NCBI GenBank assembly: GCA_945870225.1
Contig: CAMBRF010000010.1
Span: 20,880 to 84,879 of the forward strand
Source of the DNA: PVC group bacterium
GTDB taxonomy: Bacteria > Verrucomicrobiota > Kiritimatiellia > CAIKKV01 > CAITUY01
Direction: 5' to 3'
Length of the DNA stretch: 64,000 nucleotides
Below the pieces are notes generated by a model, which worked only from the letters and a program-made list of their open reading frames with translations, had not been told where the DNA came from and did no database searches. The position numbers were made by a program, and so were the translations under genes. Below, piece by piece: positions 8,999 through 52,980 of this stretch; within the stretch, counting starts at the first letter, position 1, and each line of letters starts with the position of its first letter.

Positions 8999-9010
8999 GA
9001 GGAGAACATC

Positions 9011-23071: not shown

Positions 23072-23091
23072 ACCGCCTCTTCCAAAACCTT

Positions 23092-26490: not shown

Positions 26491-26525
26491 AGTCGTCGAT
26501 TTCTCCGGTCTGGGACACCCCGCTC

Positions 26526-27758: not shown

Positions 27759-27799
27759 GAGCGTGTCTTCCTGATTGAGATTGGCGCTGAGCCAGCGCT

Positions 27800-28924: not shown

Positions 28925-29421
28925 GCCGTCTCCTTTTTCAGGGTGCTCCGATACGACCACCCGATCAGCACCACCCCGGCGGCAAGGGACAGGATATAAT
29001 CAACCGGAACACCCAGCATCCAATGCTTGTGCCAGGGAATAAACTCGGGCGCAAACTTCCCGAACCCGAAGGCGGGATTAAAAAGGAACCATAAAAAGTC
29101 CTCGATGATCCAGAACACCATCACCGACCCGATGATGCGGACCTCATGCCGCCAGGAGAACAGTCCGGTTATGAACAGCGGTAGGTGAAACACGAGCGCC
29201 ATGAAAGCAAATACCCAGACATGGTAGCCGGTAATGGTCTTCCCGCCCCAGAACAGGTTCAACCAGGAGTTGTCGAGCCGCCAGGTCGGAAGGTTGGCCG
29301 CCCACCCCGCTCCACCCTCAATCTGAATCTCCACCGTGGCGAACACCGCGCCCAACAAGGTCACCCACAACAACAGCAACGCCGCCTGAACCCCGGGCGC
29401 GATTTGACGCGCGCCGGTCAT
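28921..29421 (-). CDS. Hypothetical integral membrane protein (4 TM helices), translationally coupled to the glycosyltransferase
   Basis: About 166 aa from ATG at 29421 (track ORF extends to 29502, overlapping the upstream gene). Trp/Phe-rich TM segments. Stop overlaps the GT28 start (ATGA). No family recognised. Confidence 0.4.
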   Translation of the reverse strand: MTGARQIAPGVQAALLLLWVTLLGAVFATVEIQIEGGAGWAANLPTWRLDNSWLNLFWGGKTITGYHVWVFAFMALVFHLPLFITGLFSWRHEVRIIGSVMVFWIIEDFLWFLFNPAFGFGKFAPEFIPWHKHWMLGVPVDYILSLAAGVVLIGWSYRSTLKKETA

Positions 29422-31019: not shown

Positions 31020-31225
31020 CGATATCTCCTATGAGTTTGTTCCATCAAACATGTGCAAGGCATCGACGTCACCATTTTGGGAGGGACGGCGTGTCGCCGT
31101 CCGCGGCGCGCAACATGCGCGCCCTCCCTTAGGTCCCGGACAACAACCCAACCAGGACCCCCTGTTAACAACGAGCCGTTACCGCCTGAATCGTGACGGC
31201 AACGGCTCGTTTACTTCCGATCATC

Positions 31226-32776
31226 CTACTTCGTCGGCTCGTCCTTCTTGATTTCCGGACGGATACTGCCCAGAAACTCGGGCAGGTCCAAACCAACCTG
31301 CTTGGCCAATTCATGCATCGGCGGCAGGGCTCCCATCAATTTCTTTCCGAGGTTTGACATCCCACCGTTCTCCGATCCCCCGTCCCAGATGATCACCTTC
31401 TCGATCGGCAGATCCTGAATGGCCTTCGCCTGAATATTGGCAATCTCCGTCAACCGTTCGATCAACAACAGGGACACGGCCACCTGCGGCTCGCCGGCGG
31501 CCTGAACGAGATTTCGATAGCCCAGCGCCTTGCCGTCGAGAACGGCCTGCAAGCCCTTGCCCTCTGCCGTCATCTTCGCCAGAGTCGCCTCAGCCTGCCC
31601 TTTCGCCCGCAGTACCGACTGCTCGCGTTCGGCGTCGGCGGCGATAACCACCCGTTTCTTTTCAGCCTCGGCAGGCACGACGATCTCGGCGTTCAGGCGC
31701 GACTGTTCGCGCATGGAGCGTGCGTCCTCGGCGAGTTTCTGTGCCGTTTCCTGGGCGACCCGAATCGACCCGTCCGCCTCCCGGGCGGCGATTTCGCCCT
31801 TGTTACGGGCCTCTTCCTCCGCCACTTTCTGCGTCGCCCGATAGCTGGCTTTCTGGGCGTTGGCCGCCGTTTCCGACTGCACGGCATCGGCTTCCAGTTT
31901 GGCGGTCTGCTGACGCTTGTTTTTATCCGCCGACGCCTCACCGATCTGGGCTTCCGCCATGGCGGCCGACACCTGTTGTCGTTTCTTACGCTGGGCATCC
32001 GCCTCGCCGATTTCAGCCTCGGCTGTGGCGGCGGCCACGGCAATGCGCTGATCGCGCTGGCGCTCAGCCACACCCATCTGCCCGTGCTTTTCCTGCTCGG
32101 CCACGTCCACATTCGCCTGGTTGATAGCTTCGGCGGCCGCTTTACGTCCGATGGCCTTGATGTAACCCGACTCATCCTCGATGTCGCGGATGTTGACGTT
32201 GATCACGGCTAAACCGATTTTCTCCAGTTCCCCGGCGACGGATTCGTTCACCTTCGACATGAAGACCTGACGATCCCGATTGATATCCTCAATCCGCATC
32301 GTCGCCAACACGGCGCGCATCTGGCCGATGATGATATCCTGGGCCAAGGTCTGAATCTGCTGGGAGCTCAAACCCAGCAGACGGATCGCAGCGTTTTCCA
32401 TCACACCGGGCTGGGTCGAAATGGCCGCCGTCACCGAGGTGGGCACGGTCACTCGAATGTTCTCCTGAGACAGCGCGTTGGACAGATCGATCGGCACCAC
32501 AAACGGTTCCAGATCAAGATAATCGTACGACTGGATCAGCGGCATGACAAAGGCCGCGCCCCCGTGGACGCACTTTGAGGCCCCACTGCTCGTCTTTCCG
32601 AAGATGACCAGAATCTTATTGGATGGACACCGCTTGTATCGGCTGACGAATGTCATGAACAACACAAAGATGATGACCGCCAGCAAAATACCCAGAAAGA
32701 CCGCGACCAGAGAAACGCCCGTCTCCATCCCCGCATCTAACTGAGCCAAAACGAGTCCATTCCATATCATATTCAT
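31226..32776 (-). CDS. Flotillin-like SPFH/band-7 protein (YqiK-type)
   Basis: 516 aa. N-terminal TM helix. SPFH domain. Long Ala/Glu/Gln/Lys-rich coiled-coil with repeated 'AEA(E/Q)IGEA(D/S)A(Q/D)(R/K)KKRQQ' blocks typical of flotillins. Confidence 0.85.
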   Translation of the reverse strand: MNMIWNGLVLAQLDAGMETGVSLVAVFLGILLAVIIFVLFMTFVSRYKRCPSNKILVIFGKTSSGASKCVHGGAAFVMPLIQSYDYLDLEPFVVPIDLSNALSQENIRVTVPTSVTAAISTQPGVMENAAIRLLGLSSQQIQTLAQDIIIGQMRAVLATMRIEDINRDRQVFMSKVNESVAGELEKIGLAVINVNIRDIEDESGYIKAIGRKAAAEAINQANVDVAEQEKHGQMGVAERQRDQRIAVAAATAEAEIGEADAQRKKRQQVSAAMAEAQIGEASADKNKRQQTAKLEADAVQSETAANAQKASYRATQKVAEEEARNKGEIAAREADGSIRVAQETAQKLAEDARSMREQSRLNAEIVVPAEAEKKRVVIAADAEREQSVLRAKGQAEATLAKMTAEGKGLQAVLDGKALGYRNLVQAAGEPQVAVSLLLIERLTEIANIQAKAIQDLPIEKVIIWDGGSENGGMSNLGKKLMGALPPMHELAKQVGLDLPEFLGSIRPEIKKDEPTK

Positions 32777-33408
32777 ATAACCGAATCCTTTCGCACCGTA
32801 TCCGCCTGTTCCCTTTCAACCTCGACCGCATTGTCCCCCAAAACCCGGAGGACCTTTACCGGTGAACCGGCCGCAATTGCACTGCCGCCCTTGGCCCGCG
32901 CCTTCTGCATGGTCACAACCCCATCACACATCACCCGAATTTCTCCAGTTCCATCCCTGGGAATGTTTAGGTAAACCGTAGCCGAGTTTCCCACACAGGA
33001 GGCCACCCGCATATTACCAGTCTGGGACATGCGCTGGAGCAGGTGCAGCAGCAGGGACACCATGACCATGGCGACCAAGCCCCAAATCAAAGCGTAAGTC
33101 AACGCCCGCGCCTGCGGCAGACCCCGACTCATATATAATCCACCCGCCCAGGTAAACAGGGTGAAAAAAGCAAGAATGGAGCGAACCGAGAGCAGCTTGA
33201 AAGCCGCCACGGAATCCTGGGCATCATGGGGCGAGTCGTGTTCGAATGAAGAGCCGACCTGCCCATCGAGATCCGCATCCCCGCCGCCAAGTCCGGCCAG
33301 CGCCGAAAACATCTGGATCAGGAAAAAAACCGTAAAAAAAGCAGCGGCTACAAAGAACCACTGATTCATCGGCTGCAACGCCATCCACCATGTCATAAGT
33401 GCATCCAT
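32773..33408 (-). CDS. NfeD/YqiJ-like membrane protein (flotillin partner)
   Basis: About 211 aa from ATG at 33408 (start uncertain; other in-frame ATGs at 33396, 33384 and 33459). N-terminal TM helices plus C-terminal OB-fold-like beta domain. Stop overlaps the flotillin start (ATGA). Confidence 0.55.
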   Translation of the reverse strand: MDALMTWWMALQPMNQWFFVAAAFFTVFFLIQMFSALAGLGGGDADLDGQVGSSFEHDSPHDAQDSVAAFKLLSVRSILAFFTLFTWAGGLYMSRGLPQARALTYALIWGLVAMVMVSLLLHLLQRMSQTGNMRVASCVGNSATVYLNIPRDGTGEIRVMCDGVVTMQKARAKGGSAIAAGSPVKVLRVLGDNAVEVEREQADTVRKDSVI

Positions 33409-33495
33409 ATCCCCTCCCCTTACTACTACACCCTTTGTGTTGTTGGCGCATGCTGCCACCTGCGAGCGCTCAACGCAACCTGAATCAGACCCGCC

Positions 33496-36400
33496 TTACC
33501 CGCCCTTTTTCAGGGTGCCGAAAACAAAGAGTACAAAAAGCGCCGCGAACAGGATCGCCGTGGCAAACTTCACCAGCGCCGCCCTTTGCTGTAGCCACAC
33601 CGTCAGGCGCTCGCTGCGCAACCCGCCGTAGGCCCCCGAAAACACCACCAGCAACGGCACGATAAACGCCACATTATAAAGCGACAGGTATGCCACAGCC
33701 CCCATCCGCCCCTGCCCGGTCTTCAACATATAAAGGATGGTGGGCGCATAAACCTGCCCGGTGCAGGCCAGTTCCAGCACGGCAATCACCAACCCCGCCA
33801 CGAAGGCCGCCGCCACAAAATGCCGGTGCCGAGCGCTCTGTCGCACCGCATCATGAATCCGGGCCTTCAGGAAACCCGGCAACTGAAGCACCATGTCTCC
33901 CATGCGTCCTCTCAGACACTGCACCCCATCCCAGACACTCAGCAGGGCCACCCCGGCCACAAACACCGCCAGCCCCCCGTTCAGAACAACCCCCATCCGT
34001 CGCAGCAGGGAAAACCTGACCACCACTTCCACCAAACCCAGCCCGAGCAGAAAATACGCTATGAATATCCCCGCCACGAACGCGCCACCCACGGCCAGAA
34101 TCTCGCGCGATCCGCGCCGTGTCACCTGCAGGTATGACAGCAGGAATATGATCGTCGCAAACGCGCATGGGTTGATCCCGTCCAGCAGTCCCGCCACAAA
34201 CACAATCCCGGCACCCATGGCGGTATATCGCTCGCCCAGCGTCACGTCCGCTTGGGCAATCGCGGTTTCGCTCACTTCCCGCCATGCCGTCTCCGTCGCC
34301 TCCGAACGGCTCAGCAGCTGCCCCAACCGCTCGAATGTGATGTCAGTCCGGATGAGGAAGCCGGCCCCGCAAAACACGGCTGGCGCCACAAGACGATTTT
34401 TGTCCGGCACATCAAAACGTTCGCACAGGGCCTCATTCACACGCGCCTGATCCGGGTTGCGGATATTCATTTCCTCCACCGCCAGATCGGTAAACTCCGT
34501 TCCCAGCGCCCGCAGCAGTTCCGCGACCCGCTCGCAGTCACGGCAGCCGGGATTGCGGAAAAACACCACGCGGCGCACGGGAGCGCCCGCCCCTGCCGTC
34601 TGAACGGGGCCCGGCTCCCGTCCGCCTGGCTGCACGTCAGTGCGTCCGCTGCCGGCCGGCCCGGCCGCCGGCCTGGGCTCATTCCTACGCAGCACAACTT
34701 CCTTCGTCCCCGCCGGGGCGGCGGAGCCGGCGCTCAACTGCTTGCGCAGACTAATGAGCTGGGCGTCCTCGTTCCCGACCTGCTGGATCACGGTATCCAA
34801 CAGTGCCAGAACCTCATTCACGTTCATCTCGCGCAGCCAGCTCACCGGCGCCTCCCGTATGGATGAGAGCAACCGGTAGGCCCCCATCCGCTTGTCGGAC
34901 GTCGACTCGAGCATCTCCGCCAGCACCCGCAGATCCGTTTTTTCGCGGTTTGAAAACAGGCACAACGCTGCTGCGGTACGCACCGCCAGAGACCGGTCGC
35001 GGCTCAATGCCGTCAGCACCTCCACCACCGGCTTCGGCAAGCGTTTGCGGGTGCCGGATGAATCAGTGAAACTGCTCACGCCCTCCGTCGCCGTCTCCGC
35101 ATCGAAATAAACAGTCCACGGATCGATTCCCACACGCCCGTACACCGCCGGAACGACGGCCCGTACCCATTCCGAAGAGTCCCGTGCCACGGTCTGGATT
35201 TTTTTAAGAAACTCGCCGGGCTGATGTTTGCCCCAGGCATACCAAGCCGCCCGCCGCACATAGGGATTATCGTCACTCAGATACCGTGTCACAAGCGACT
35301 GGTCCCCCTCCCGCCAGCAGGAATCAAGCAACGTTAACGCCAGAATGCGTCGGGGATCGTCGTAACGCGCCCGGTCGTTATTCTCCAAAACCTGCCTTGC
35401 CGCTGACCCGATCTGCCGCCGGATGGCCGGACGCCGCACCACTTGAAACCATTGGTAGGATTCCCTGAACAGGTCGGACGGACTGAGCACAGAACCCGCC
35501 TCGACCGCCGCCTCGATCAGTTCCTTCACGAGGAGATCCCCCGCCGTTTCCTTCAGGCATAGCGACGCCGCCGCCTGGCGCACGTCGGCCGATGGATCCC
35601 TCAGCAACCGTTTCACCAACGGGACGGCCGCTTCACCCCGGCATGCTGTGGCCCGTTTGGCAATCTCCAGCCGTTCCTCCGCTGTGCGGGAGTCGAGGGA
35701 CGACACCAAATACGTCAGGCCTGTGCCATTCCCCATGGCCATCAGCATCAGGGCGGCCGAAAACCTCAGATCGGCATCCTGCTTCGGGTCCAGGTACACC
35801 AACGCCTCCTTGACCAGACTTCCGACCTCCTGCGAGGGTGCCGGGGCCGGTTGCGCAAGCGGCACCTCAGCAGGTGCCGCCGGTCCGAAAGCGCTGAAAA
35901 CATCCTGTAAACTGGCTTGTTCCGGCACCACGTTGGTCACCACCGTCGTAACTGCCGGTGCCGGTGCGGCTGAAAACGCCGCGAATAATCCAGCCAGCCC
36001 CTCACCCTCGCCCCCCGCCGCCACGGCATTGCTGACCACCGGGGGCGCGGCGATCATCTCATCGATATCCACACTGTCGGACATATCGATTGATCTCGAA
36101 TAGGATTCGCGCTCCGCATCGGCCTTATACGATTCGAAAACGGCCTGAACCCGGTCCTTGATTCCATCATGCAACACTTTGGCCAATTCCACCTGGACCC
36201 CGGTGTTCGCACTGCCCCCCCGCGACACAACGCGAATGGCGGCGCAGGCCACATCGCCGTTTTCATGCCGAACATACGGCAAAGCCAGCCGCCAGGAATC
36301 CGAACGGCCGTCACCCAACCCCTCCAGCACCGACAGCAACACCTCGGGGTCCTTGCCCTTTAATGCCGGGCCGAACGTCTCCGGAAGAGATTCATCCATC

Positions 36401-38115
36401 TGCCGCAATGCCGCCACGATCGGCCCCTTTAGCGGATCATCCTTAAGAAAAACCTCCGCAAGCCGTTTGACCGATTTTTTAGCCGACAATGTCGTCAGGG
36501 TCAGCACCGCCGTGCGGCGCACGAACGGATCCGCATCATCAAGACAGGCCATCACCTCCGTCTCCGCTCCCGGGGCCCGAAGCTGCCCGAGCGCCTCCAG
36601 AGCCGCCGCCCGCACCCTCCAGTTGGGATTATTCAGGCATTCCTTCACGGCCTTTGCGGCTGTGGCAGACTTCGTCCTCCCCAGACTTGACAGGGCGGCC
36701 ACCGTCAGGTCCTCGTTGGCATGGGTGAGGAATGGTCTGACCAGTTCCACCGCCTGCTGGCCCTTAAGATTTCCCGCGCCCCTGATGACCGCATGGACGA
36801 CCTCATCATCTCGCTCCGTCTTCAGCAGATCCCCCAGATACCGGAAGGCCTTGTTCTTGCCGGCGCTGATCAGGGCATCCACGGCCGCCTCCCGGATCAA
36901 CGGGTCCGACTCCCCCAGGAAATCGGCCAGCACCGGCAGGGCCCGCTCTCCCGCCACCGCCGCCGCCGCGAGACTGCGCAATCGCTCATCCTGATTCCCG
37001 AAAACCAGTCGATGCACAATCCGGCTACGCTCGAGCCCAAGCGAATCGGGCAACAGCAAGAAATAGCGCACTTCCCTCACCCGCCGGCGGGCGTCCTCAC
37101 TGGCCCCTGCAGCCGAGGCGACCCACGTCTCCAGCACCGGGATCACCGACTCCCCCGCCTGTTCAAGCATGCGCACCGCCCGTGCCGACCGGTCCCGGTC
37201 GCCGGAGGCCAGGTCCCGTATGTGCCCCGCGATCTGTTCCTCGGTCAGCGGCGCAAACACCCGCTGGGCCTCATTCGAACTCCCCTTCGCCCAGCCCTGC
37301 CACTGATCAAGCGCCACACGATTTTCGCCGGGCTCCACCCACGGATCATACCCATAGGTCTGGCCGGCCCGTTCCTCCAGAATCTCAAAGGCCCCCAGCC
37401 GCACCGATAATTTCGGATGCTTCAGGAGGTCGATCCAGTCGCGACGGGGACACGGCTCATATGCGATCAGCGCATCATGCAGCGGGGCGCGACCCGCCTT
37501 GCTCCCAAGCCCGGCCATCAGTTCCGGCCATTGGCTGACAGGAACTTCTTTCGCCTGCAGCGCCTTTAACCACTTCCCCAGTTGAGGAGAGGAGGACCCC
37601 TTCTCCGCACCCCCCTTCCTGAATCGATCCAGGAAAGTCAGAAAGGCCTCCTTGTCCATAAAGCCCTCGGCGATGGACTGCGGGCTCCCGTCACCAGAAA
37701 GGATCACCGTCGCGGGGACACCTCTCAACTGGAACAACTGCGCCGTCTTCTCATCACGGGAGGTGTCGATGCTGACGCAGATAAACCCCTCCAGCGCAGC
37801 CAGGACGTCCTTCTCCGCCAGGGTTTCCGATTTCAGCCGCACACACCAGGGGCAATTCGGCGAGGAAAACACAACCAGGACCGGCTTGAGTTCGTTGCCC
37901 GCGCGCGCCAGGGCCCCACTCAGGTTCTCCGTCCAATGGACGGTGGGAACGGCCTCCGTCTCCGCAAACCCCGCGGCGGACAACAGGCCGGCCATCACGC
38001 CCGCCAGCATGACCCTCCGGGCAAAAGTCTTCGCCGACGACACGGGCGCCGTCCCTTCAGCGGAGAAACCGGTTTTTTGACCAAAACTCATATTCGCACC
38101 CACTCGCCCCATCAA
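33496..38115 (-). CDS. Giant thioredoxin-like / HEAT-repeat / thioredoxin-like / CcdA(DsbD)-transmembrane fusion protein
   Basis: 1539 aa. Signal peptide. N-terminal Trx-fold with 'SPNCPWC'. About 1000 aa of PBS-lyase-type HEAT repeats (recurring 'VRxxAxxALGxL', 'DxDxxVRxxA'). Second Trx-fold with 'NPGCRDCE'. C-terminal 6-TM DsbD/CcdA domain with both conserved cysteines ('GINPCAF', 'LELACTGQVYAPT'). Confidence 0.7.
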   Translation of the reverse strand: MMGRVGANMSFGQKTGFSAEGTAPVSSAKTFARRVMLAGVMAGLLSAAGFAETEAVPTVHWTENLSGALARAGNELKPVLVVFSSPNCPWCVRLKSETLAEKDVLAALEGFICVSIDTSRDEKTAQLFQLRGVPATVILSGDGSPQSIAEGFMDKEAFLTFLDRFRKGGAEKGSSSPQLGKWLKALQAKEVPVSQWPELMAGLGSKAGRAPLHDALIAYEPCPRRDWIDLLKHPKLSVRLGAFEILEERAGQTYGYDPWVEPGENRVALDQWQGWAKGSSNEAQRVFAPLTEEQIAGHIRDLASGDRDRSARAVRMLEQAGESVIPVLETWVASAAGASEDARRRVREVRYFLLLPDSLGLERSRIVHRLVFGNQDERLRSLAAAAVAGERALPVLADFLGESDPLIREAAVDALISAGKNKAFRYLGDLLKTERDDEVVHAVIRGAGNLKGQQAVELVRPFLTHANEDLTVAALSSLGRTKSATAAKAVKECLNNPNWRVRAAALEALGQLRAPGAETEVMACLDDADPFVRRTAVLTLTTLSAKKSVKRLAEVFLKDDPLKGPIVAALRQMDESLPETFGPALKGKDPEVLLSVLEGLGDGRSDSWRLALPYVRHENGDVACAAIRVVSRGGSANTGVQVELAKVLHDGIKDRVQAVFESYKADAERESYSRSIDMSDSVDIDEMIAAPPVVSNAVAAGGEGEGLAGLFAAFSAAPAPAVTTVVTNVVPEQASLQDVFSAFGPAAPAEVPLAQPAPAPSQEVGSLVKEALVYLDPKQDADLRFSAALMLMAMGNGTGLTYLVSSLDSRTAEERLEIAKRATACRGEAAVPLVKRLLRDPSADVRQAAASLCLKETAGDLLVKELIEAAVEAGSVLSPSDLFRESYQWFQVVRRPAIRRQIGSAARQVLENNDRARYDDPRRILALTLLDSCWREGDQSLVTRYLSDDNPYVRRAAWYAWGKHQPGEFLKKIQTVARDSSEWVRAVVPAVYGRVGIDPWTVYFDAETATEGVSSFTDSSGTRKRLPKPVVEVLTALSRDRSLAVRTAAALCLFSNREKTDLRVLAEMLESTSDKRMGAYRLLSSIREAPVSWLREMNVNEVLALLDTVIQQVGNEDAQLISLRKQLSAGSAAPAGTKEVVLRRNEPRPAAGPAGSGRTDVQPGGREPGPVQTAGAGAPVRRVVFFRNPGCRDCERVAELLRALGTEFTDLAVEEMNIRNPDQARVNEALCERFDVPDKNRLVAPAVFCGAGFLIRTDITFERLGQLLSRSEATETAWREVSETAIAQADVTLGERYTAMGAGIVFVAGLLDGINPCAFATIIFLLSYLQVTRRGSREILAVGGAFVAGIFIAYFLLGLGLVEVVVRFSLLRRMGVVLNGGLAVFVAGVALLSVWDGVQCLRGRMGDMVLQLPGFLKARIHDAVRQSARHRHFVAAAFVAGLVIAVLELACTGQVYAPTILYMLKTGQGRMGAVAYLSLYNVAFIVPLLVVFSGAYGGLRSERLTVWLQQRAALVKFATAILFAALFVLFVFGTLKKGG

Positions 38116-38768
38116 TGCGTCAGCGCGTACACCAGGATGTTAACGTTCACTTCCATTGAATTGATAATTTCATTTCCACCACAGCAGCAACACCCCACCG
38201 TGTGGGCGGTATCGTTCAAACCTTGCGCCGAATAGATCACCACGGTTTTGCCGTCGTTTTCGATTCCTTCCAGATACGGATCCGATCCCCCATGGCTCAA
38301 TTTGAGATCCTTGATCGTTTTAACCGTTTTGAAAATGGCGTGATCCATGCTGATCCGACCCAGCTTGCGATCCGGAAGAACCTGGCGCATCTCGCGGCGG
38401 AAGGATTGGTCCCACTCCTTGCTGGAGCACCCGGCCGAAGCCAGCAGGAACCCGCCCCGGGTCAGGTATTTCTTCAGGTTTTCCCGTTCCTTGGCTGAAA
38501 GATAAAACTCCTTCTCTCCCGTCATCACCACAAACGGGAAGGCGAACAACTCCTCCGAATCAAGTTTCACGCTCTTGAAACGTCGTTCCGTGGCAATCGT
38601 GCTCTCCCGCTGAACCGCACTCAGAAATTCGTCACTGAAACACCGGGAGGTCTGAGTTCCGGCGTAAATGAGATTGGCACACCGGACCGCCGCCTCTTTC
38701 GCCTGTGTGGGAGCGGCCCACCCCATCGCCGCGCACAAAACAGCACTTAGCAGGGTTTTTCCTATCAC
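38112..38768 (-). CDS. DUF4159 domain protein (Bat/MoxR-operon-associated)
   Basis: 218 aa. Signal peptide. C-terminal Cys cluster 'HTVGCCCCGGNE'. 'GGFLLASAGCSS' core typical of DUF4159 (class I glutamine amidotransferase-like fold). Stop overlaps the downstream start. Confidence 0.65.
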   Translation of the reverse strand: MIGKTLLSAVLCAAMGWAAPTQAKEAAVRCANLIYAGTQTSRCFSDEFLSAVQRESTIATERRFKSVKLDSEELFAFPFVVMTGEKEFYLSAKERENLKKYLTRGGFLLASAGCSSKEWDQSFRREMRQVLPDRKLGRISMDHAIFKTVKTIKDLKLSHGGSDPYLEGIENDGKTVVIYSAQGLNDTAHTVGCCCCGGNEIINSMEVNVNILVYALTH

Positions 38769-41587: not shown

Positions 41588-41592
41588 TGCCG

Positions 41593-43815
41593 TTACGCCA
41601 GTCCGTTTCGTCGCCGGATCATCCACTCCATTGACAGTGCCGCCAGAATGACCACAAGGATCCATCCCCGGTCCCAGAGCGGCTCCCACACCACATTGCT
41701 TCCCTGATCAGCCTGCCGGCTCCGCGCCTCTTCCCGTTGTGACATGGCCGCGACCAGTGCACCCGCCTCCAGTACGCGGCCTCCGGATGACGCCGTGAGC
41801 TTTGCCAGAAATTCAGGATCCGGATTGACGTCGTCCCGCTCGCCCGGCGGATCCCGGATCAGCAACAGGGCGCTCAACTCATGCCCCTTGTCCTCAACGG
41901 CCGGCGACACCAGCGTCACCCGGTACAATCCGGGATCGGTCAAGGTGATGACCGCCTCCCAGGTATCCGCCCGGTCACCCGACGCCAGAACGATTTCCTG
42001 AACCGCACCGGCGCCACGCGCCACGCGCAGCCGCAAGGCCTCCCGGACGTCTTTCGCCAGACCCCGCCGCCGCACCTCGACCCGTACCGGCGTATTCGGC
42101 AATGCCGCCACAGCCCCGAGATGCAACGCATAATCATGTCCGGGCAGAAACTCCGAATATGTCCCGGCCCAGAGCATCAGCTGCGTCCATAACTCCTGAT
42201 ACATTCCTGCGGCGGCCCGGGCCGAGGGAAAGAACGACCACTGCCAGAACCCGTCGACGTTCATCACCACGGTCATGCCCTTGCCGAAACGGCGACTCAC
42301 CAACAGCGGAACCGCCTGCGACGCTCCTGTCGGACGCCCCTCCGCCAGAACCTGGGAGAACGACTTGAGCCCCACGGAGGTTTGACTGCAGCGCACCGGC
42401 GGCAGAGTGGACCACACGGGATCGTCACGCCCCGGCAGCAACCCGGCAAACAGGCCACTGTCCTCACCTTCGCTGCGCGGCGTCATCCGGCAGTCCACCG
42501 AGGAGGCTCCGCCCCATTCCACCGGCTCCAGGTCCTCAAGCCCGCCGCCCTGGTCGGCATAGGGCCGGCCACGCGCCAACACGATGCTTCCGCCCTGGTC
42601 GGCCACGAAGGACTTCAGCGCCGCAATCCGGCCGGGTGTTAGAAAATACTCCGCGCCCTTACCGAACACCACGATGTCGTAGGAACCCAATTCCGCCGCC
42701 GTGTCAGGAAAGATGGCTTTTGACTCCGAGTGGGGGACTCCGGCAGGATCGGTCTTGAAGAACCGGTCCGGAGCGGTGCGGTAGACGGCCGTCACCTCCA
42801 TGTTCGGCTGTTTGCGCAGATGCTGCCCCAGAAACTTGCTGTCCCAGTATGGCACACCCTCCACCAACAATACTCGAATCTTCCGATCAAGCGCATTGAT
42901 CTCAAATGCTGACTCGTTGTTCCGAACATCGTTCTCACCCTCCCAGGGGACCACCTGGAGTTTGTACGAGGCGTAGCCTGTCCGCTCGGGAACGACGGTA
43001 AAGGAGACCGTACCCCGGCCAACGGCGGGCAGCCGGACGTCATTGGTCGCCACAGCTCGCCCGGCCCCATCCAGCAACCGGACGGCCACAGAGACCTCGC
43101 TGGACCACCGTGACGTCACCTCGCCCTGTATACGCACGGGCTGCCCCACAAAACCGATCACCAGTCGCCGGGCGGCCTTGACGGCAATATCACGGACTTC
43201 CCTGATCTGACCGAACGGCACGGCAAACACCGGCGCATCCTGAGCCCGGGCCCGCAGCCCGGCAGACATCGGGTCAACTTCCGCAACCGTCTGGCGTCCA
43301 TCAGAGAGCAGGATGATCCCGATCGGCCGGTCTCCGCCCACGGCCCCCGCTCCCGTAACCATCTCCAGGGCGCGCCCGGCATCGGTCGTCATCCCATCGG
43401 GAACCAGCCGGGCAATCGAGGCGGCCGTCTGGCGCGCGCCGTCGACATTATCACTGAAGGCCAGGACGTCCAGATCGCACCGGTCGCCCGCCTCCTTCTC
43501 CAACTGCGCCGCCAGCCGACAGGCGGCCGCCCACCGGCTCTGTCCCGCCACATCCACCGTGGCCATACTGGCGCTACGGTCGAGCAGAATACACCAACGC
43601 GGCTTGACGTCCGCGTCCGGCTTCCGCCAGTGCCCGAAATTCAAGGCCAGCGCACTCAGGGCGGCCAGGGCCAGACACCGGGCCGCAAGGGCGAACCCGC
43701 GCGCCCGGACGGGGAGCCGGGCCGAGGCACGCCAGGCCAAGAACATGCCGCCGGCCAGGAAGATCACCACCAACACAACCCATTGTTCCATCGGCAACAG
43801 GGGATTCACCGTCAT
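41593..43815 (-). CDS. vWA-domain membrane protein (BatB-like)
   Basis: 740 aa. N-terminal TM helices. MIDAS motif 'ILLDRSASMA'. C-terminal 'RVLLVEGVPYWDSKFL' region reminiscent of a GATase1-like domain. Start overlaps the BatA stop (ATGA). Confidence 0.6.
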   Translation of the reverse strand: MTVNPLLPMEQWVVLVVIFLAGGMFLAWRASARLPVRARGFALAARCLALAALSALALNFGHWRKPDADVKPRWCILLDRSASMATVDVAGQSRWAAACRLAAQLEKEAGDRCDLDVLAFSDNVDGARQTAASIARLVPDGMTTDAGRALEMVTGAGAVGGDRPIGIILLSDGRQTVAEVDPMSAGLRARAQDAPVFAVPFGQIREVRDIAVKAARRLVIGFVGQPVRIQGEVTSRWSSEVSVAVRLLDGAGRAVATNDVRLPAVGRGTVSFTVVPERTGYASYKLQVVPWEGENDVRNNESAFEINALDRKIRVLLVEGVPYWDSKFLGQHLRKQPNMEVTAVYRTAPDRFFKTDPAGVPHSESKAIFPDTAAELGSYDIVVFGKGAEYFLTPGRIAALKSFVADQGGSIVLARGRPYADQGGGLEDLEPVEWGGASSVDCRMTPRSEGEDSGLFAGLLPGRDDPVWSTLPPVRCSQTSVGLKSFSQVLAEGRPTGASQAVPLLVSRRFGKGMTVVMNVDGFWQWSFFPSARAAAGMYQELWTQLMLWAGTYSEFLPGHDYALHLGAVAALPNTPVRVEVRRRGLAKDVREALRLRVARGAGAVQEIVLASGDRADTWEAVITLTDPGLYRVTLVSPAVEDKGHELSALLLIRDPPGERDDVNPDPEFLAKLTASSGGRVLEAGALVAAMSQREEARSRQADQGSNVVWEPLWDRGWILVVILAALSMEWMIRRRNGLA

Positions 43816-45881
43816 GTGGACACCTCCTTGGCGGGGGGACGTCCGGGCTTCCGGAACGAATCGTAAGCGGCGACGCCCCCTTCACAAAGAAGAAGGATCA
43901 GGGCCAGCCACAGTAATCGCGGCCAGAGCGGGATCCCCGCCTGCCAATCCCGGACATCACGCCCGGACGAGGCCGTCAGGGCGCCCAATCCCTTGATCTC
44001 CGTATCCGACAGGGGGCGGAGATCCGATTCGACCGCCGGGAAGTTGACCACCTCGCGACTCATTACGCGCTCACCGGCCATCCAATCATAGACTCCGGGC
44101 TGCTCCACGGGCTCTGACACTCTGGCCCCGCCCGCCGTCTCCAGCGCTCGCAATGGCACATCGGAGCCGTCCGGACCTTGCAACCGAATCTCGTCGGCGC
44201 GGGCCTCGACTCCTGTCCGCCACGTCAACCTTTGCCCGGGAACACTGTCCTTAAGCACCCGGACCGAACCCGGCAGGCCCCGTCTGGACGCCAACAACAA
44301 CTCCCCGAGAAGGGGCACAAATTCAGCCTGGTTCTGAACCGAAGAAAGTCCCTTTTCCAACGTGATATTCCACAGAATGAGCGGCAACGGGCCCCGGCAC
44401 ATCCATAAGGCGGGTGTCCCGTCCTCATAGGATATCAGCGGGTCACCCGCCGGCAATTGCGCGGTCGTGACGGCCAGCCGGCCGCGAACACGCCCACGGG
44501 CCGGGTCCCCATACTCGCCGGCCGCAAACGCCCGGAACACCGGGTGGTCCGGCGCCGCCACTTTGAGGCGGAACCCCTCGGGGTTCTCCTCCCACACGGT
44601 CACAGCCCGCGAGTCCCCCAACGGGGCGGCATTCGTCAGAACTGTCATCAATCGTGACACCGGCATACCGACCGGCGGTGCCCAGACCACCGGAATGCCC
44701 CGCTCAAGAACCCCCCGCACGCGGGAAGAATCCGTTCCCGGCCAGCCGGACAGTAACAGGACATCACCGATCATCTCGGGGTTCACCAGCGCCTCCGTCG
44801 TCAGCAAATCCGGTCGCGCCCAGCCCAAGGCGCGGCACCCTTTCGCCCACGCGGCGGCCGTCGCCTCTCCTTTACCGGAAGAGACCAATCCGACCCGCAA
44901 CAGATCCGCCGGTTCCACAACCGCCCAGCGCCGGTCATCGCCCGGAAAGGGATCCTCGGCCAGCGAAGCACTCACGGCGAACGACAAGGGGGCCGCGATC
45001 CGCTGCTTAAAGGTCACGGTCGCACGCCCCCAGGGGGGAAGGACCGCCTCATGGGAGGTCCGTGCCGATTCCACCGCCAGAATGATCGTCTTCCGTTGCG
45101 GGGCTCCTGAGAAGTTGGCCACGTCACACAAAATGGTCGCCTCCTCGCCCGGCAATGGTCGCGCAGGATCAACCTCGACACGCAGGATCGCGGCATTAGG
45201 CGACTCGCCGCGCGCCGTTCCCACACACGTCAGGCCGATATCCGGCGGCAACCGCGGCTTGAAACCGCGCCAGTTCGACGCCTGAAAATCGCTGATGATA
45301 CAGATTTCCTTCCGGCCTTCCTGCCCGGCGAGAAGTCGCACCGCCAGACGCAGGGCGGCATCGGGATCAAGCGCCTCGGAGGTCAGCCGCGCCCGCCGGA
45401 TTTCCCCTTGTAAATAGCCGATGTTCCCGCCCATCGCCGGAAACACGGCCCGGGGTCCGGCACCGGCCAGGATCAGGTCGGCGGCATCGCGTGACGACAG
45501 CCCGGCCAGAATCTCCGAAGCCTCCGCACAGGCCACGGCAAAACGCGTCTGGCTGCCGTCCGACCACCCCATCGAGGCCGACGCATCCAGGATCACCACA
45601 ACGTTACGCCTTTCAAACAGGCCTCCCCCGCCGTGCGAGAACAGCATCGGACGGAGAAAGAGAAGGATCACCGCCGCCACGGCCGCCGTGCGCAAAATCA
45701 GCAACAGCCAGTCCTTGGGCTTGCGGACCCGCTGCGTGAAACGGAGGGCCCGTTGAATGAACTCCACCGAACTGAAGTCGACGATCGGCGGTCTGGCGCG
45801 GGCGAACAGATGCATCACCAACGGCAGGACTACCAGAAGGGCCAGGGGCCACAGGATCGCGTTGAGGAAAATGACGCTCAC
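43812..45881 (-). CDS. BatA-like aerotolerance-type vWA protein
   Basis: 689 aa. N-terminal double-TM BatA region ('LLLILRTAAVAAVILLFLRP'). MIDAS 'VVILDASASMGWSDG'. Overlaps the DUF58 stop. Confidence 0.7.
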   Translation of the reverse strand: MSVIFLNAILWPLALLVVLPLVMHLFARARPPIVDFSSVEFIQRALRFTQRVRKPKDWLLLILRTAAVAAVILLFLRPMLFSHGGGGLFERRNVVVILDASASMGWSDGSQTRFAVACAEASEILAGLSSRDAADLILAGAGPRAVFPAMGGNIGYLQGEIRRARLTSEALDPDAALRLAVRLLAGQEGRKEICIISDFQASNWRGFKPRLPPDIGLTCVGTARGESPNAAILRVEVDPARPLPGEEATILCDVANFSGAPQRKTIILAVESARTSHEAVLPPWGRATVTFKQRIAAPLSFAVSASLAEDPFPGDDRRWAVVEPADLLRVGLVSSGKGEATAAAWAKGCRALGWARPDLLTTEALVNPEMIGDVLLLSGWPGTDSSRVRGVLERGIPVVWAPPVGMPVSRLMTVLTNAAPLGDSRAVTVWEENPEGFRLKVAAPDHPVFRAFAAGEYGDPARGRVRGRLAVTTAQLPAGDPLISYEDGTPALWMCRGPLPLILWNITLEKGLSSVQNQAEFVPLLGELLLASRRGLPGSVRVLKDSVPGQRLTWRTGVEARADEIRLQGPDGSDVPLRALETAGGARVSEPVEQPGVYDWMAGERVMSREVVNFPAVESDLRPLSDTEIKGLGALTASSGRDVRDWQAGIPLWPRLLWLALILLLCEGGVAAYDSFRKPGRPPAKEVST

Positions 45882-46753
45882 TGGGTCAACCTCTCAAACA
45901 GGCGGTAAAAATGCGTATCGGTCCGGGCCACGGTGTAGTCAACGTTCCGCCGCACCGCCAGATCGCGCAGGGCATCGATATGCCGGCCCATCGCCTGGAG
46001 ATAACCCTCCCGCACATCATCGGTGTGTGCCGTGACCCGCTGTCCGGTTTCAAGATCCCGGAACGACACCAGCCCCTTGTCGTCCAACTCCAGTTCGGCC
46101 GGCGTCAGGACATGAAACAGGAAAATCTTGAACCCGCGATGCAGGTAGGGCCCCAGCGCGGAGAAGATCGCCGCCGGATCGTCAAAGAAATCCGACACCA
46201 CAACCAGGATGCCGCGCCGTTTGAGCAGGGGAAAGGAATGCCGCAAAGACTCCGCCAGCGATGTACGCTCCCCGGGCTGATTCCGTTCCAGCAGGTTCAA
46301 TAACCCGTTTAAATGCAGGTTGGTGCTGCCCGGCGGGATGAACGTCCGGATCGTTTTGTCGAATAACTGGAGCGACACCCGATCCCCGCCGCGAATAACG
46401 AGATAGGCGAGACAGGCCGTAAAGAACGAGGCGTACTCCAGTTTCGACGGATTGCTCCCAAAGCCCATCGAGGCGCTGCTGTCCAGGAACAGGTGGCAAT
46501 CCATACTGGTCTCATGATCGTAAGTCCGAAGGTAGAACCGGTCCGTACGCCCGAAGACCCGCCAGTCAACCAGCGCCAGGTCATCCCCCGGAACGTACTG
46601 GCGATAGTCGCGGAACTCGACGGACGACCCGCGTGCCCGGGACACATGCCGACCCGCAAAATAACCTTCCACCACGGCCTTGGGTGAAAATTCAAACCCG
46701 GCCAGCTGCCGGATATCCTCCGGCCGCAAGTATTGGAATCGTCGATGTGTCAC
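45878..46753 (-). CDS. DUF58 domain protein (MoxR-associated)
   Basis: 291 aa. 'FRDYRQYVPGDDLALVDWRVFGRTDRFYLRTYDHET' and 'LFLDSSASMGF' are typical of DUF58. Confidence 0.8.
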   Translation of the reverse strand: MTHRRFQYLRPEDIRQLAGFEFSPKAVVEGYFAGRHVSRARGSSVEFRDYRQYVPGDDLALVDWRVFGRTDRFYLRTYDHETSMDCHLFLDSSASMGFGSNPSKLEYASFFTACLAYLVIRGGDRVSLQLFDKTIRTFIPPGSTNLHLNGLLNLLERNQPGERTSLAESLRHSFPLLKRRGILVVVSDFFDDPAAIFSALGPYLHRGFKIFLFHVLTPAELELDDKGLVSFRDLETGQRVTAHTDDVREGYLQAMGRHIDALRDLAVRRNVDYTVARTDTHFYRLFERLTQ

Positions 46754-46773
46754 GTGACTCCCGGGAAACTGGA

Positions 46774-47754
46774 TCAGAGAGAGGCTTCAAGCTTTTCGAT
46801 GATCTGATCCACGGTCACCCCTTCGCCCGTCGCATTATAGTTCGGGATCACGCGGTGACGCAGAACAGGCTTCATAACTGCCCGCACCTCCTCGAGTGAG
46901 GCGGCGGACTGACCACGCAGCAGGGCCAAGGCCTTGACCGCGCTGGTCATGGTCTGTGAGGCCCGCGGACCGGCACCCCAGGCGACATAACGCTTCACAT
47001 GGTCGCCTGCCAGCGGCGAGCTCGGGCGGGTCGCGTTGACCGTTCGCAGGATCGCAGACAACACATGGTCCGGCACCGGCACATCCAGGATCATATCCTG
47101 CAGGGCAAGAACCTCGTCAGCCTCCAGGACTTTGGGTGTTTCAGCACAATGACGCCCCGTCGTGCGCAGCACAATATCGCGCTCCTGGTCCAGGGGCGGG
47201 TAGTCCATGGTCAGGCTGAAGAAAAACCGGTCCAGTTGGGCCTCGGGCAGCGGATAGGTTCCCTCATGCTCAATGGGGTTCTGGGTGGCGAACACAATGA
47301 ACGGCTCCGTCAGCTTCATGCTCTTACCCGAGACCGTGACCTGCTTCTCCTGCATGGCTTCCAGCAGGGCGGCCTGGGTTTTCGGCGGCGTACGGTTGAT
47401 TTCGTCGGCCAGAATCAGGTTGGCGAAGATCGGGCCGGGCGCAAACTCGAACCGGCGACGCCCGCCCCCTTCCTCCTGCAGAATCTCACCTCCGGTGATG
47501 TCCATCGGCATCAGGTCCGGCGTGAACTGGATACGCCGGCTGACCAAGCCAAGGGTCCTGCCCAGCGTCGTCACCAACAGGGTCTTGGCCAGCCCCGGAA
47601 CGCCAATGATCAGGCAATGCCCCTTGCACAAAAGAGAGGTCAGCAACAACTCCACGACAGCATCCTGCCCGACAATCACCGTGCCGATCGCCTTCCGGAG
47701 CGCCTCCATTTGAGAACGCACCTTGTCCCACTTTTCACCCGCGCTTTGTGTCAT
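46774..47754 (-). CDS. MoxR-family AAA+ ATPase
   Basis: 326 aa. Walker A 'GVPGLAKT'. Walker B 'ILLADEINR'. MoxR-specific 'TQNPIEHEGTYPLPEAQLDRF'. Confidence 0.9.
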   Translation of the reverse strand: MTQSAGEKWDKVRSQMEALRKAIGTVIVGQDAVVELLLTSLLCKGHCLIIGVPGLAKTLLVTTLGRTLGLVSRRIQFTPDLMPMDITGGEILQEEGGGRRRFEFAPGPIFANLILADEINRTPPKTQAALLEAMQEKQVTVSGKSMKLTEPFIVFATQNPIEHEGTYPLPEAQLDRFFFSLTMDYPPLDQERDIVLRTTGRHCAETPKVLEADEVLALQDMILDVPVPDHVLSAILRTVNATRPSSPLAGDHVKRYVAWGAGPRASQTMTSAVKALALLRGQSAASLEEVRAVMKPVLRHRVIPNYNATGEGVTVDQIIEKLEASL

Positions 47755-47835
47755 GTTTCAATCCTTCCGCCTTTAACTTGATCCGTGCAATAGGCACGTT
47801 CCCCTCTGTCATAACAGGGCCGCCGACGCCCCGCT

Positions 47836-50800: not shown

Positions 50801-50991
50801 CCCATGCTCATGAACGTACGGAATCCCTGACTGTAGTCCTGCACATTCGTCGAGACACTGACCGGGGGCGTAGCTGAAGACTTTTCCTGAAGTGTGACGG
50901 CGTCAGGCGGAGGGACAATGGCCGGAGCGGCCTGCGCCACGACAGCAGCGCCAAACAGGATCCCCGCGGCGGCAATAACACCCGTATTCAT
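47836..50991 (-). CDS. Large secreted hypothetical protein (first gene of the Bat/MoxR-type operon)
   Basis: About 1050 aa from ATG at 50991 (track ORF extends to 51018). Signal peptide 'MNTGVIAAAGILFGAAVVAQA'. Ala/Lys/Glu-rich, largely helical. No enzyme motifs recognised. Confidence 0.45.
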   Translation of the reverse strand: MNTGVIAAAGILFGAAVVAQAAPAIVPPPDAVTLQEKSSATPPVSVSTNVQDYSQGFRTFMSMGVPDTSKARYVKLDYYGGGFQDMTMHRLQEFQISGNAWLISENKEDRSVLVTSSGRTLELFDQKTATKKMMEEARSNAVTQTATSTKGVVKVMGGVRRNCGQAMAEAGNWTPVDLSRDLARATALLDKKIKAKSSGAREMRYDAFLQSDEPAGALFLLAATAWQNGKTQEANALVGRLFTLVGDSRKVIVGALNVVADSQLAATLDAFRKTGDWKAYQISITGLLKKYPAGWRKAGAVKLLADHLQARVAMTEAPALTGEGLSGEDLQLAADLASETNQVGSGMYMGHGGLWIFPPAKTMRGMKNESVIGRIMARGVKSIPLLIALVPDETLCPLRRADLGMSVYYSGSGNMAQKPESERALLYFNQMDRPVTRGEIARTLLAPLMKRGENSPFNEAGGSPEEVIESAKQVYALLKDLPPSALAPYFLKNGDQQQQQIAIGYMLQDDIESNAPAIEAFLLTPPAEGMEGQGRWMMGSGLAQQYVQKRGEKAAEFVEKYVAIRQKVELPAGMADNAEYEKMLKKQADNEIKALRAMVKKQDLTELVASLASAGDENDGGMAYSALGRQPAAQAVPALLAAAVKTTNVMARVRILQMLPMLRYAGMEAQMQESMANGEDQSPESMQAAMKKFSDKNKLNIATNAAEWKILLADTRGMPNGRMYSGGAYAMTVADIAASGIEALYGDTSRMESYGRRGAYLRPDVMMKYSRDRAAARLAGITEDQLPKLPDADDVTAERRKVIDAAIIKASPAALGAVLDKLTDAENLYLMAAAAENEAITKALAPMARIIESVKTAPELSAAEVDRIKKLTGTTVSTNVIAEMRELCTRQLKAGKAFVVTLSSGGLGKGLRLEVTVMDAAMQRMNGRSGYMSMLGKNAKRKGMVMGTLMNSGSYGNGMWVVDLPAPVTTGTVASVSAEDDDNLGDRLDFMERHLESQQEQFATAAETFCKADEALGQGASVTFMGMLPVEKKDKQDEGSDGEGVVDVGIE

Positions 50992-51323
50992 TATACATCC
51001 GAACACATTACGACTCATCAGGCTTCTCCTTTTTCACCGGTTAACGACATTTGGCAGCATTCCAGAAAACATATGCCGAAGCTGATCAGGCGGCAGTCGG
51101 ACAGGGAGTTCTTGAAGGAAGAACGTAGATTATCATGCGGTGGTGATGTCACCATGAGGGGAACATTGCTTTTTCCAGATGCAATACGCAATAAGAAAAA
51201 ATGGAAGAAGTCGAGGAGCCTCGCCTGGTCTTTTCACTCTCATCAGGATGAAGGGTGTCCGCAAAAAGACCCGACCGGTTTTTATCCAGCCATTCGTTTA
51301 TTCCGTGAACAAGTCCGACCCTT

Positions 51324-52595: not shown

Positions 52596-52980
52596 AAGAA
52601 AGACCTTTTAGGATCATTCCGTAGCAGAATCCAAATTGCCATCAACCCGAATTCGAGAACAAGGACAAGTTACAGCCACACGAAAACGGGTTCAACCCTT
52701 CTTACCGACTCCAGGAAATATACGCGAGGGCAAGCAGCCTGTTGCCCCCCGGCTCAGCCGGAGGCTTCGCCCAACCTTGGGAAAACCCAGTGGTTTTGCA
52801 GGGCGAGGCGTTTCGCCGAGCCGCCTTGAAGCAAATGCATTGATTTTCATAGGGCCTCTTGACGGTACGGCTTGACCGGCAAGTCTTCGAATTATAGCAT
52901 GTTGATAGTAGTGCCACTGCTCGCAAGCCAGGGTTATGGCTTCAAATTAGGTGGCAGTCAAAACAGGGGGAGGAATCGCA

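Follow-up and report, generated by a model that had tools for sequence, protein, structure and literature searches.

The window analyzed here is a stretch of 64,000 nucleotides from a PVC group bacterium of the Kiritimatiellia (contig CAMBRF010000010.1 of assembly GCA_945870225.1, positions 20,880 to 84,879 of the forward strand), and all coordinates below are positions in it. Between 31226 and 51018, ten consecutive open reading frames (ORFs) lie on the minus strand. In the order of transcription they encode a large secreted protein (P1), a MoxR-type ATPase, a DUF58 protein, a BatA-type protein, a second membrane VWA protein of 740 residues (VWA740), a 940-residue membrane protein (X940), a DUF4159 protein, a protein of 1538 residues with thioredoxin (Trx), HEAT, glutaredoxin (Grx)-like and membrane regions (the giant), an NfeD-like protein and a flotillin. 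The original prediction viewed them as one operon of ten co-directional genes joined by overlaps or short gaps. All ten ORFs were found at the coordinates that it gave, and the gaps measured between successive genes, from P1 to flotillin 81, 20, -4, -4, 5, -4, -1, 36 and -4 nt, agree with its list of junctions. Comparison with other genomes shows that the region very probably consists of two units, a conserved operon of eight genes extending from P1 to the giant, and the NfeD-flotillin pair.

Shared orientation alone says little in this part of the genome, since nearly all genes between 17462 and 63975 are on the minus strand. The sole convincing plus-strand gene in this run of about 46 kb, at 52951-54159, belongs to the TMEM43 family (PF07787, E = 4.8e-84). 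A scan for consensus terminators returned 17 sites for 17.2 expected, which corresponds to background, and no consensus promoter or terminator site was placed by such scans inside any intergenic spacer. The evidence beyond chance for the grouping of these genes is their conservation in other genomes. Three data sets were used for DUF4159 and the giant, namely (a) metagenome contexts of homologs of the giant, with 31-70% identity (L001-L007); (b) contexts of DUF4159 homologs in named metagenome-assembled genomes (MAGs) from Kiritimatiellia, Lentisphaerae and one MAG labelled Verrucomicrobia; and (c) a scan built on a DUF4159 alignment, with one genome per species and with GCCCCGGN as one of its two search patterns, which yielded at least 527 relatives, the best 80 of which were taken. 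The taxa in this last set comprise Lentisphaerales, Victivallales, Kiritimatiellia and many Verrucomicrobiota, including Prosthecobacter fluviatilis, Haloferula sargassicola, Luteolibacter, Akkermansiaceae, Opitutales, Chthoniobacteraceae and Limisphaerales. DUF4159 homologs at E up to 1e-3 number 3609. The locus counts given below rest on 87 non-duplicate DUF4159 loci, from which subsets were drawn by flank length. For flotillin, a metagenome search with the window protein provided 77 loci, with 41-96% identity.

As far as the contigs extend, the order MoxR, DUF58, BatA, VWA740, X940, DUF4159, giant is held in L001-L007, and all three named MAG contexts have X940, then DUF4159, then a Trx/HEAT/Grx protein of 1473-1537 residues. 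The five genes upstream of DUF4159 are all present, colinear and on one strand in 48 of the 54 loci whose flank measures 9.1 kb or more; two of the other six run out of flank, and three are without MoxR-DUF58-BatA. Wherever there is room, X940 lies upstream of DUF4159 (74/74 loci), as does VWA740 with a single exception (62/63), and in 41 of 45 loci the P1-family profile places the C-terminal end of a P1 homolog just before the MoxR gene. On the other side, a HEAT and Grx-like protein directly follows DUF4159 in all 68 loci that leave space for it (at least 4.7 kb). The five junctions from MoxR to DUF4159 have median gaps of -4 to +9 nt and the DUF4159-giant junction a median of -46 nt, the start of the giant being extrapolated in this case, and gaps of 100 nt or less make up at least 87% at each junction. 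The gene beyond the giant differs among nine distinct annotated contexts and is convergent in six of them. Because what follows the giant varies between loci, the conserved unit is that from P1 to the giant. Thus, the extension of the MoxR-DUF58-BatA-VWA module by the 940-residue protein, DUF4159 and the redox-HEAT giant, as originally predicted, holds in relatives, and the upstream 1060-residue P1 is also part of it. Gene order is kept there for the first eight genes and not for NfeD and flotillin. The eight-gene operon is inherited vertically across Verrucomicrobiota, Lentisphaerota and Kiritimatiellia. P1, X940 and the cysteine-rich DUF4159 subfamily represent three sizeable families, unannotated or known only as a DUF, that always travel together.

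The periplasmic and redox half of the operon is separable from its ATPase half, since X940, DUF4159 and the giant are kept without MoxR, DUF58 and BatA in the 5-7 kb upstream in L009/L022 (Lentisphaerae GWF2_49_21), L019 (Victivallis sp.) and L086; L009 and L019 also keep VWA740. In L056 and L060, a giant-like match with 48% query cover lies beside DUF4159 on the opposite strand, which could reflect a rearrangement or an assembly artefact.

The first gene of the operon, P1 (47836..51018, on the minus strand like the other genes of the run), codes for a 1060-residue protein with a signal-like N-terminal segment, which is predicted to be secreted. It has no Pfam or NCBIfam match. Its family comprises 481 cluster representatives of about 950-1050 residues, with no significant Pfam match in any of 25 members and no PDB relative. 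A relationship of P1 to the HEAT region of the giant was considered, and hhalign detected none.

The MoxR-type AAA+ ATPase (46774..47754) is defined by AAA_3 (E = 4.3e-60) and AAA_lid_2 (E = 5e-16) matches, and its Walker A (GVPGLAKT) and Walker B (LADEINR) motifs are essentially invariant in 46 orthologs. Just before Walker A, the segment LLCKGHCL harbors two cysteines, Cys43 and Cys47, that are kept in 98% of these 46 orthologs. The next gene (45878..46753) encodes the DUF58 protein (E = 2.4e-45), a VWA-like partner of MoxR whose metal-ion-dependent adhesion site (MIDAS) motif, DxSxS, is kept in 51/51. Both proteins are without membrane segment, the DUF58 protein having no hydrophobic segment at all, and both are expected to reside in the cytoplasm.

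Two membrane VWA proteins follow. The BatA-type protein (43812..45881; BatA, E = 2.4e-11; VWA_2, E = 3e-10; TIGR02226, E = 1.2e-11) has membrane segments at residues 1-19, 58-76 and 648-666, the MIDAS motif DASAS, and about 440 residues between its VWA domain and its C-terminal helix. From its N- to its C-terminus, VWA740 (41593..43815) has a pair of membrane helices, a divergent VWA domain, a middle part resembling GATase1 and DUF7408, and one last membrane helix. Its VWA_2 match reaches 23.1 bits for a cut-off of 27, and its DUF7408 and GATase1_like matches are weak; all three recur in five homologs. One homolog of VWA740 passes PF00092, and DxSxS, the MIDAS motif, is intact in 62 of 65 sequences. 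Because a basic loop joins the two N-terminal helices in each of these proteins, and because each has one C-terminal helix, their VWA bodies are predicted to face the periplasm. That orientation has been established experimentally for the VWA domain of BB0173, a BatA-domain homolog (PMC5700661). X940 (38765..41587), which belongs to an unannotated family, combines three Ig-like domains with a long helical rod. No Pfam domain is precomputed for any of its 52 homologs, and a Pfam scan gave no DUF4175 (PF13779) match at E up to 10, a remote relationship not having been compared by profile-profile methods.

The DUF4159 protein (38112..38768; PF13709, E = 1.2e-28) has 218 residues, a signal peptide and a GATase1-clan fold; we take the name of that clan to be class I glutamine amidotransferase-like. 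Seven of its cysteines, C30, C43, C114 and C193-196, the last four within the motif GCCCCGGNE, are invariant in 88 orthologs, with the proviso that the invariance of CCCC is partly built in, since GCCCCGGN was one of the two patterns with which the genomes were scanned. It is the sole exported component of the operon with invariant cysteines, those of the other exported components being poorly conserved. DUF4159 proteins from outside the clade, namely Hoch_4089 of known structure (PDB 4i66, of the same family with a profile E of 3.8e-16) and those of Gemmatirosa and Corynebacterium, all lack these cysteines, which makes for a small contrast. No giant was found near DUF4159 in the two outside-clade surroundings examined, those of Gemmatirosa, on an unannotated chromid, and of Corynebacterium. 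The latter gene, at 8842-9459 of plasmid pCRULAC1 of Corynebacterium crudilactis (L091), is a stand-alone cysteine-free DUF4159 in a multi-resistance region with IS26, aph, sul2 and a dihydrofolate reductase gene. On the basis of structure, Pfam groups DUF4159, GATase1_like and ThuA in one clan (PMC4702930), and this Pfam paper provided the one mention of DUF4159 found by full-text searches of open-access papers.

The last gene of the operon (33496..38112) starts at ATG 38112 and encodes the giant, which is identical to database protein P0001. Its Pfam domains include an N-terminal Trx domain at residues ~55-165 (37618..37950; Thioredoxin_2, E = 1.3e-12), with a CPWC motif formed by C87 and C90, which NCBIfam places on the C-terminal Trx domain of DsbD. 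A HEAT/alpha-solenoid region follows at residues ~200-1150 (34663..37515; HEAT_2, E = 8.6e-38, in four stretches), with a low-complexity linker near residue 700-780, and then a Grx-like domain of Trx fold at residues ~1178-1270 (34303..34581), with the invariant motif CRDC (C1190, C1193). The C-terminal part (33508..34227) is a six-helix membrane domain of CcdA/DsbD type, in which helix 1 carries NPC (C1316) and helix 4 carries ACTG (C1450). The CPWC, Grx-like CxxC, NPC and ACTG motifs are conserved across 15 homologs of the giant, down to 31% identity. Among 68 orthologs, both HEAT halves, as judged with N- and C-terminal profiles, and the Grx-like CxxC are found in all, and the membrane domain in 62, with NPC in 62 and [AS]CTG in 59 of these 62. 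The N-terminal Trx domain is more variable, being present in 45 of the 68, with its CxxC intact in 39. The proteins of Verrucomicrobiales (L044, L050, L052-L055, L057-L062, L066, L067, L072-L075, L077-L079, L083-L086 and L089) are without it, and they keep the signal peptide, the HEAT region, the Grx-like CxxC and the membrane cysteines. Thus, a three-step relay cannot be universal, since the Trx domain or its CxxC, or the membrane domain, is missing in some orthologs.

The membrane domain of the giant is recognizable by profile comparison. With hhalign, its profile aligns with E. coli DsbD over 188 columns that cover the DsbD membrane domain (E = 5.6e-4), and C1316 and C1450 come in register with C182 and C304 of the DsbD precursor, which we take to be the essential pair C163/C285 of the mature protein. 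The domain has no Pfam match at E up to 10, PF02683 and PF13386 included, and its only NCBIfam match is a weak one to ArsG (E = 0.0025). Sequence and profile searches of the PDB with the membrane domain found no CcdA nor anything else, and Foldseek with a model of the C-terminal part retrieved only the Trx fold from the PDB; the fold of the membrane region may be compatible with that of CcdA (5vkv). Homologs of the giant are named CcdA/thioredoxin/HEAT by JGI. Because no curated family threshold is reached, the domain is termed DsbD/CcdA-like here and not a member of these families. With three conserved cysteine pairs and membrane cysteines that align with those of DsbD, the physical linkage of the locus to a thiol-redox relay, put forward in the original prediction, is supported.

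The giant has a hydrophobic N-terminal segment, no membrane helix up to residue 1300 and six helices between residues 1301 and 1531, and basic loops follow helices 1, 3 and 5, a positive-inside pattern as read from the sequence. A hydrophobic signal-like N-terminus is found in 62 of 75 orthologs, and the Trx-less proteins of Prosthecobacter have a clear signal peptide. On the grounds of the signal-like N-terminus, the lack of an earlier helix and the placement of the basic loops, the Trx, HEAT and Grx-like regions would lie outside the cytoplasm. At 37980-38112, the signal-like segment is preceded by FARRVML, which is loosely reminiscent of a twin-arginine motif and may be a coincidence or the result of a wrong start.

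The two remaining genes of the run make up the second unit. The NfeD-like gene (32773..33411) most likely starts at ATG 33411, preceded by the Shine-Dalgarno sequence GGGGAGGGG, an arrangement kept in L011; with this start, the protein has 212 residues and the spacer after the giant measures 84 nt instead of 36. Its name is based on PF01957, which reaches 12.8 bits for a cut-off of 29.1 in the window protein and is the top match at the C-terminal ~50 residues of six of seven family members, always below threshold (E = 0.004-0.16). The flotillin (31226..32776), its SPFH/Band_7 partner (Band_7, E = 1.3e-27), has a membrane helix at residues 23-41 and a coiled-coil tail of flotillin type, and it aligns with the FloT model over residues 30-504 (E = 1e-36), with 127 bits for an equivalog cut-off of 700. 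In every one of the 77 flotillin loci with room, an NfeD-like gene lies directly upstream, with a median gap of -2 nt (59 loci). The giant adjoins the pair in L092 only (flotillin 96% identical, same lineage), and no Bat, DUF4159 or giant gene is present in about 21 flotillin loci whose upstream flank reaches 7 kb or more. Conversely, the pair follows the giant in one of the 87 DUF4159 loci, that of the nearest relative, L011, or in 1 of about 59 when distinct loci with at least 7 kb downstream are counted. Among the relatives with long flanks, the closest is L005/L006 (MoxR 95% identical), which shares the synteny of the window on both sides and lacks the 2.3-kb NfeD-flotillin segment: there, 41 nt separate the giant from the homolog of window gene 29418-31019, beyond which come the lipid-metabolism genes also found in the window. 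NfeD and flotillin are thus an ordinary, autonomous SPFH/NfeD pair inserted downstream of the operon in this lineage and not functionally tied to it.

As to transcription, the giant-NfeD spacer is unstructured by RNA folding (z = -0.37), and a region with four GC-rich hairpins (31020..31225, minus strand) follows flotillin. Two overlapping windows of folding give z = -4.5 there, none of 200 shuffles being as stable, and L011 has a hairpin and a T-run at the equivalent place. This region probably ends the transcription unit, and read-through from the operon into NfeD-flotillin is possible in the window, since strong hairpins come only after flotillin; any such read-through is a local accident of position. 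The 17-bp stem of the main hairpin (31170-31211) is unique in the window and no transposase or repeat was seen at the boundaries of the pair; a repeated or mobile element at these borders, which was considered, is therefore not retained.

Downstream of flotillin, at 21327-31019 on the minus strand, lies a membrane-lipid gene cluster syntenic with that found directly after the giant in L005/L006. It encodes a C92 amidase-like protein, an MGDG-synthase-like glycosyltransferase, a second acyltransferase, and a 1132-residue triple fusion of MFS, acyltransferase and AMP-binding domains (LplT/Aas-like). It also includes a 171-residue protein without Pfam match, about 68% of which aligns with a PAP2-like counterpart ORF of 205 residues in L005. 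An alpha/beta-hydrolase (esterase-like) gene at 26526-27758 (minus strand) is absent from L005/L006 and represents a second lineage-specific indel nearby.

What these proteins might do together can be proposed from sequence, structural models and synteny, on which all functional statements made here rest. The eight-gene operon would encode a complex of the inner membrane and the periplasm. MoxR and DUF58 would work in the cytoplasm, and BatA, VWA740 and X940 would be anchored in the inner membrane by segments with short basic cytoplasmic loops, their large periplasmic bodies being built of VWA/MIDAS, GATase1-like, Ig-like and helical-rod domains. P1 and DUF4159 would be exported. The giant would serve as a DsbD-type conduit, in which cytoplasmic electrons pass to C1316/C1450, then to C1190/C1193 of the Grx-like domain and, in many lineages, further to C87/C90 of the Trx domain, all relay domains being held on the HEAT scaffold of about 1000 residues. 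The likeliest client would be DUF4159, whose seven cysteines, CCCC included, may need to be kept reduced or metal-loaded in the periplasm. By analogy with the general behavior of MoxR-VWA pairs, the MoxR/DUF58 ATPase, acting on the cytoplasmic loops of the membrane components, might put the complex together or remodel it from inside the cell. On balance, we consider that the giant probably is a transmembrane thiol-reductant relay serving the MoxR/VWA complex; that its client is DUF4159 is a tentative proposal, suggested by the sequences, that may well not hold. A broader version, in which the operon of the PVC group represents, in its ancestral or complete state, a Bat-type machine that delivers cytoplasmic reducing power, under the control of ATP, to periplasmic DUF4159 on a HEAT scaffold, is still more speculative and rather doubtful; in this version, DUF4159 could be a redox sensor, a carrier of metal or persulfide, or a cysteine-dependent enzyme of the GATase1 clan. 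To call the system an envelope quality-control machine, as the original prediction did, would be a reasonable guess at its function.

Several observations weigh against a relay dedicated to the MoxR/VWA complex. The N-terminal Trx domain is absent from 23 of the 68 giants and has lost its CxxC in six more, and in another six (L028, L029, L038, L070, L080, L087) the membrane domain is absent from the ORF. Three lineages (L009, L019, L086) keep VWA740-X940-DUF4159-giant with no MoxR-DUF58-BatA nearby, and bat mutants of Leptospira have no oxidative-stress phenotype (PMC3557215). As for DUF4159 as a client, what suggests it is adjacency and cysteine conservation, and the use of GCCCCGGN as a scan pattern makes the invariance of CCCC in that set partly circular. 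The operon of the window may also be read through into the pair, since no structure lies between the giant and NfeD. The latter point, together with the shortness of the spacer (36-84 nt) and the recurrence of the ten-gene order in L011 and L092, makes co-transcription possible and is what speaks for the view of the original prediction that all ten genes form one machine coupling the Bat/MoxR-VWA system and the redox relay to membrane microdomains. However, both loci belong to the close lineage of the window, L005/L006 has the next syntenic gene right after the giant, the pair is absent beside the giant in all other loci with room, and the remaining flotillin loci sit in unrelated contexts. 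Synteny thus largely refutes that view, which we regard as very improbable, and with it goes the suggested link between Bat proteins and flotillin microdomains.

That the giant would be a general supplier of periplasmic reductant, for cytochrome c maturation, disulfide isomerization or methionine/cysteine repair, and would sit at the end of the operon by history or for co-regulation, appears unlikely. It would be in keeping with DsbD/CcdA-family proteins, which normally supply several periplasmic pathways (PMC2631958), and the loss of the Trx domain in Verrucomicrobiales suggests a flexible output. Nevertheless, DUF4159 and the giant are adjacent in 68/68 loci across phylum-level divergence while downstream genes are scrambled, the giant stays with VWA740-X940-DUF4159 in split operons (L009, L019, L086), and a HEAT scaffold of about 1000 residues, which would be superfluous for a general reductase, argues for a dedicated partner. 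Less probable still is a structural reading, in which the operon would give rise to a surface, adhesion or transport structure, for instance a scaffold of VWA, Ig-like and GATase1-like domains that spans the envelope, with thiol modules that serve only its oxidative or reductive folding and are not its output. The VWA/MIDAS domains, the Ig-like domains and helical rod of X940 and the large secreted P1 do look structural, and mutants of a related Rhizobium operon have envelope-integrity defects (as cited in PMC5700661). Yet Pfam, NCBIfam and PADLOC scans identified no outer-membrane, secretin or pilus component among the ten genes, and there would be little for a folding catalyst to act on, because the exported components other than DUF4159 have poorly conserved cysteines. 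Finally, the MoxR protein also matches PF20030 (bpMoxR, E = 1.3e-9), which evokes a conflict or anti-phage system like the MoxR-vWA-beta-propeller ternary systems. However, the AAA_3 match is far stronger, beta-propeller and effector domains are lacking, and the operon, a single one, has been conserved vertically and in synteny in hundreds of species and is not patchy in its distribution. PADLOC yields a generic HEAT match only, and as far as it can tell the defense reading is rejected; we give it next to no credence.

Operons of the MoxR/DUF58/Bat kind occur widely, with carriers among Bacteroidota, spirochaetes, Francisella, rhizobia and other groups, and in some species their mutants have stress, virulence or envelope phenotypes. 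The bat (Bacteroides aerotolerance) operon of B. fragilis and its homologs in spirochaetes, Francisella and Riemerella encode MoxR, DUF58 and BatA-E. Like that of B. fragilis, the operon of the window is tight and comprises a MoxR-proper AAA+ protein, DUF58 and a VWA protein with the BatA_N double anchor, with MIDAS motifs kept, and the proposed link to periplasmic reducing power is common to both (PMC3557215). VWA740 is the candidate for the second membrane VWA protein, BatB; it has twice the usual size, an extra GATase1-like region and, in the window, a VWA_2 score below cut-off. In contrast to B. fragilis, the operon has four additional conserved genes, those of P1, X940, the stand-alone cysteine-rich DUF4159 and the giant. 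No match to BatC (TPR), BatD (PF13584) or BatE (SH3/TPR) was found among the ten proteins at E up to 0.01, nor at E up to 10 in the four that were rescanned.

According to the account of it in the later literature, Tang et al. proposed in 1999 a role for Bat proteins in reducing damaged periplasmic proteins or in exporting reducing power (PMC3557215), the oldest hypothesis on these operons and one that was never shown (PMC3557215; PMC5700661). An effect of MoxR on stress tolerance has been described in Riemerella (PMC11834572). A search of the open-access literature for a connection of MoxR or BatA with DsbD or CcdA turned up no paper. Across much of the PVC group, the Bat module is joined at the level of the operon to a putative reductant conduit and an exported protein with seven cysteines, which would give the 1999 idea a concrete and testable molecular form. 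A specific pair of candidate partners, defined cysteines and cultured carriers, Prosthecobacter fluviatilis and Haloferula sargassicola, allow genetic testing.

The RL3499-RL3502 operon of Rhizobium leguminosarum, described as affecting envelope integrity (cited in PMC5700661), has a similar layout, with MoxR and DUF58 followed by large membrane proteins, two in that case; the envelope phenotype is that of the Rhizobium operon. In the window, DUF4159 differs from its Rhizobium counterpart in being separate and exported and in having an added cluster of cysteines. We take RL3501-type proteins to be fusions of BatA_N and DUF4159, and RL3502-type proteins to carry DUF4175; we know of no redox protein in the RL3499-RL3502 operon. 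Regarding DUF4159 itself, 4i66, a structural genomics entry from Haliangium ochraceum, belongs to the same family; it is without C114, and its alignment stops before CCCC. The NfeD-flotillin pair resembles known NfeD-SPFH pairs, such as YuaF-FloT of B. subtilis, in that a membrane protein with a small C-terminal beta domain is encoded just upstream of flotillin and overlaps it; it is ordinary but for an NfeD domain too divergent for the Pfam threshold.

With DsbD, CcdA and ScsB, which are transmembrane transporters of thiol-disulfide reductant, the giant shares two membrane cysteines and periplasmic CxxC domains of Trx fold. As in DsbD, three cysteine pairs are carried by one polypeptide (PMC2631958). 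The arrangement differs, the order Trx-HEAT-Grx-membrane replacing the Ig-like alpha, membrane and Trx gamma domains of DsbD, with a solenoid of about 1000 residues inserted, and NPC and ACTG are found instead of the usual PC...P pattern. E. coli DsbD has eight membrane helices; the giant has six, like CcdA (5vkv). If the broader version given above holds, with ATP-controlled delivery of reducing power to DUF4159, it would be the first concrete molecular route for the Bat reducing-power hypothesis, and the Trx-HEAT-Grx-CcdA arrangement would represent a new architectural class of DsbD-like reductases.

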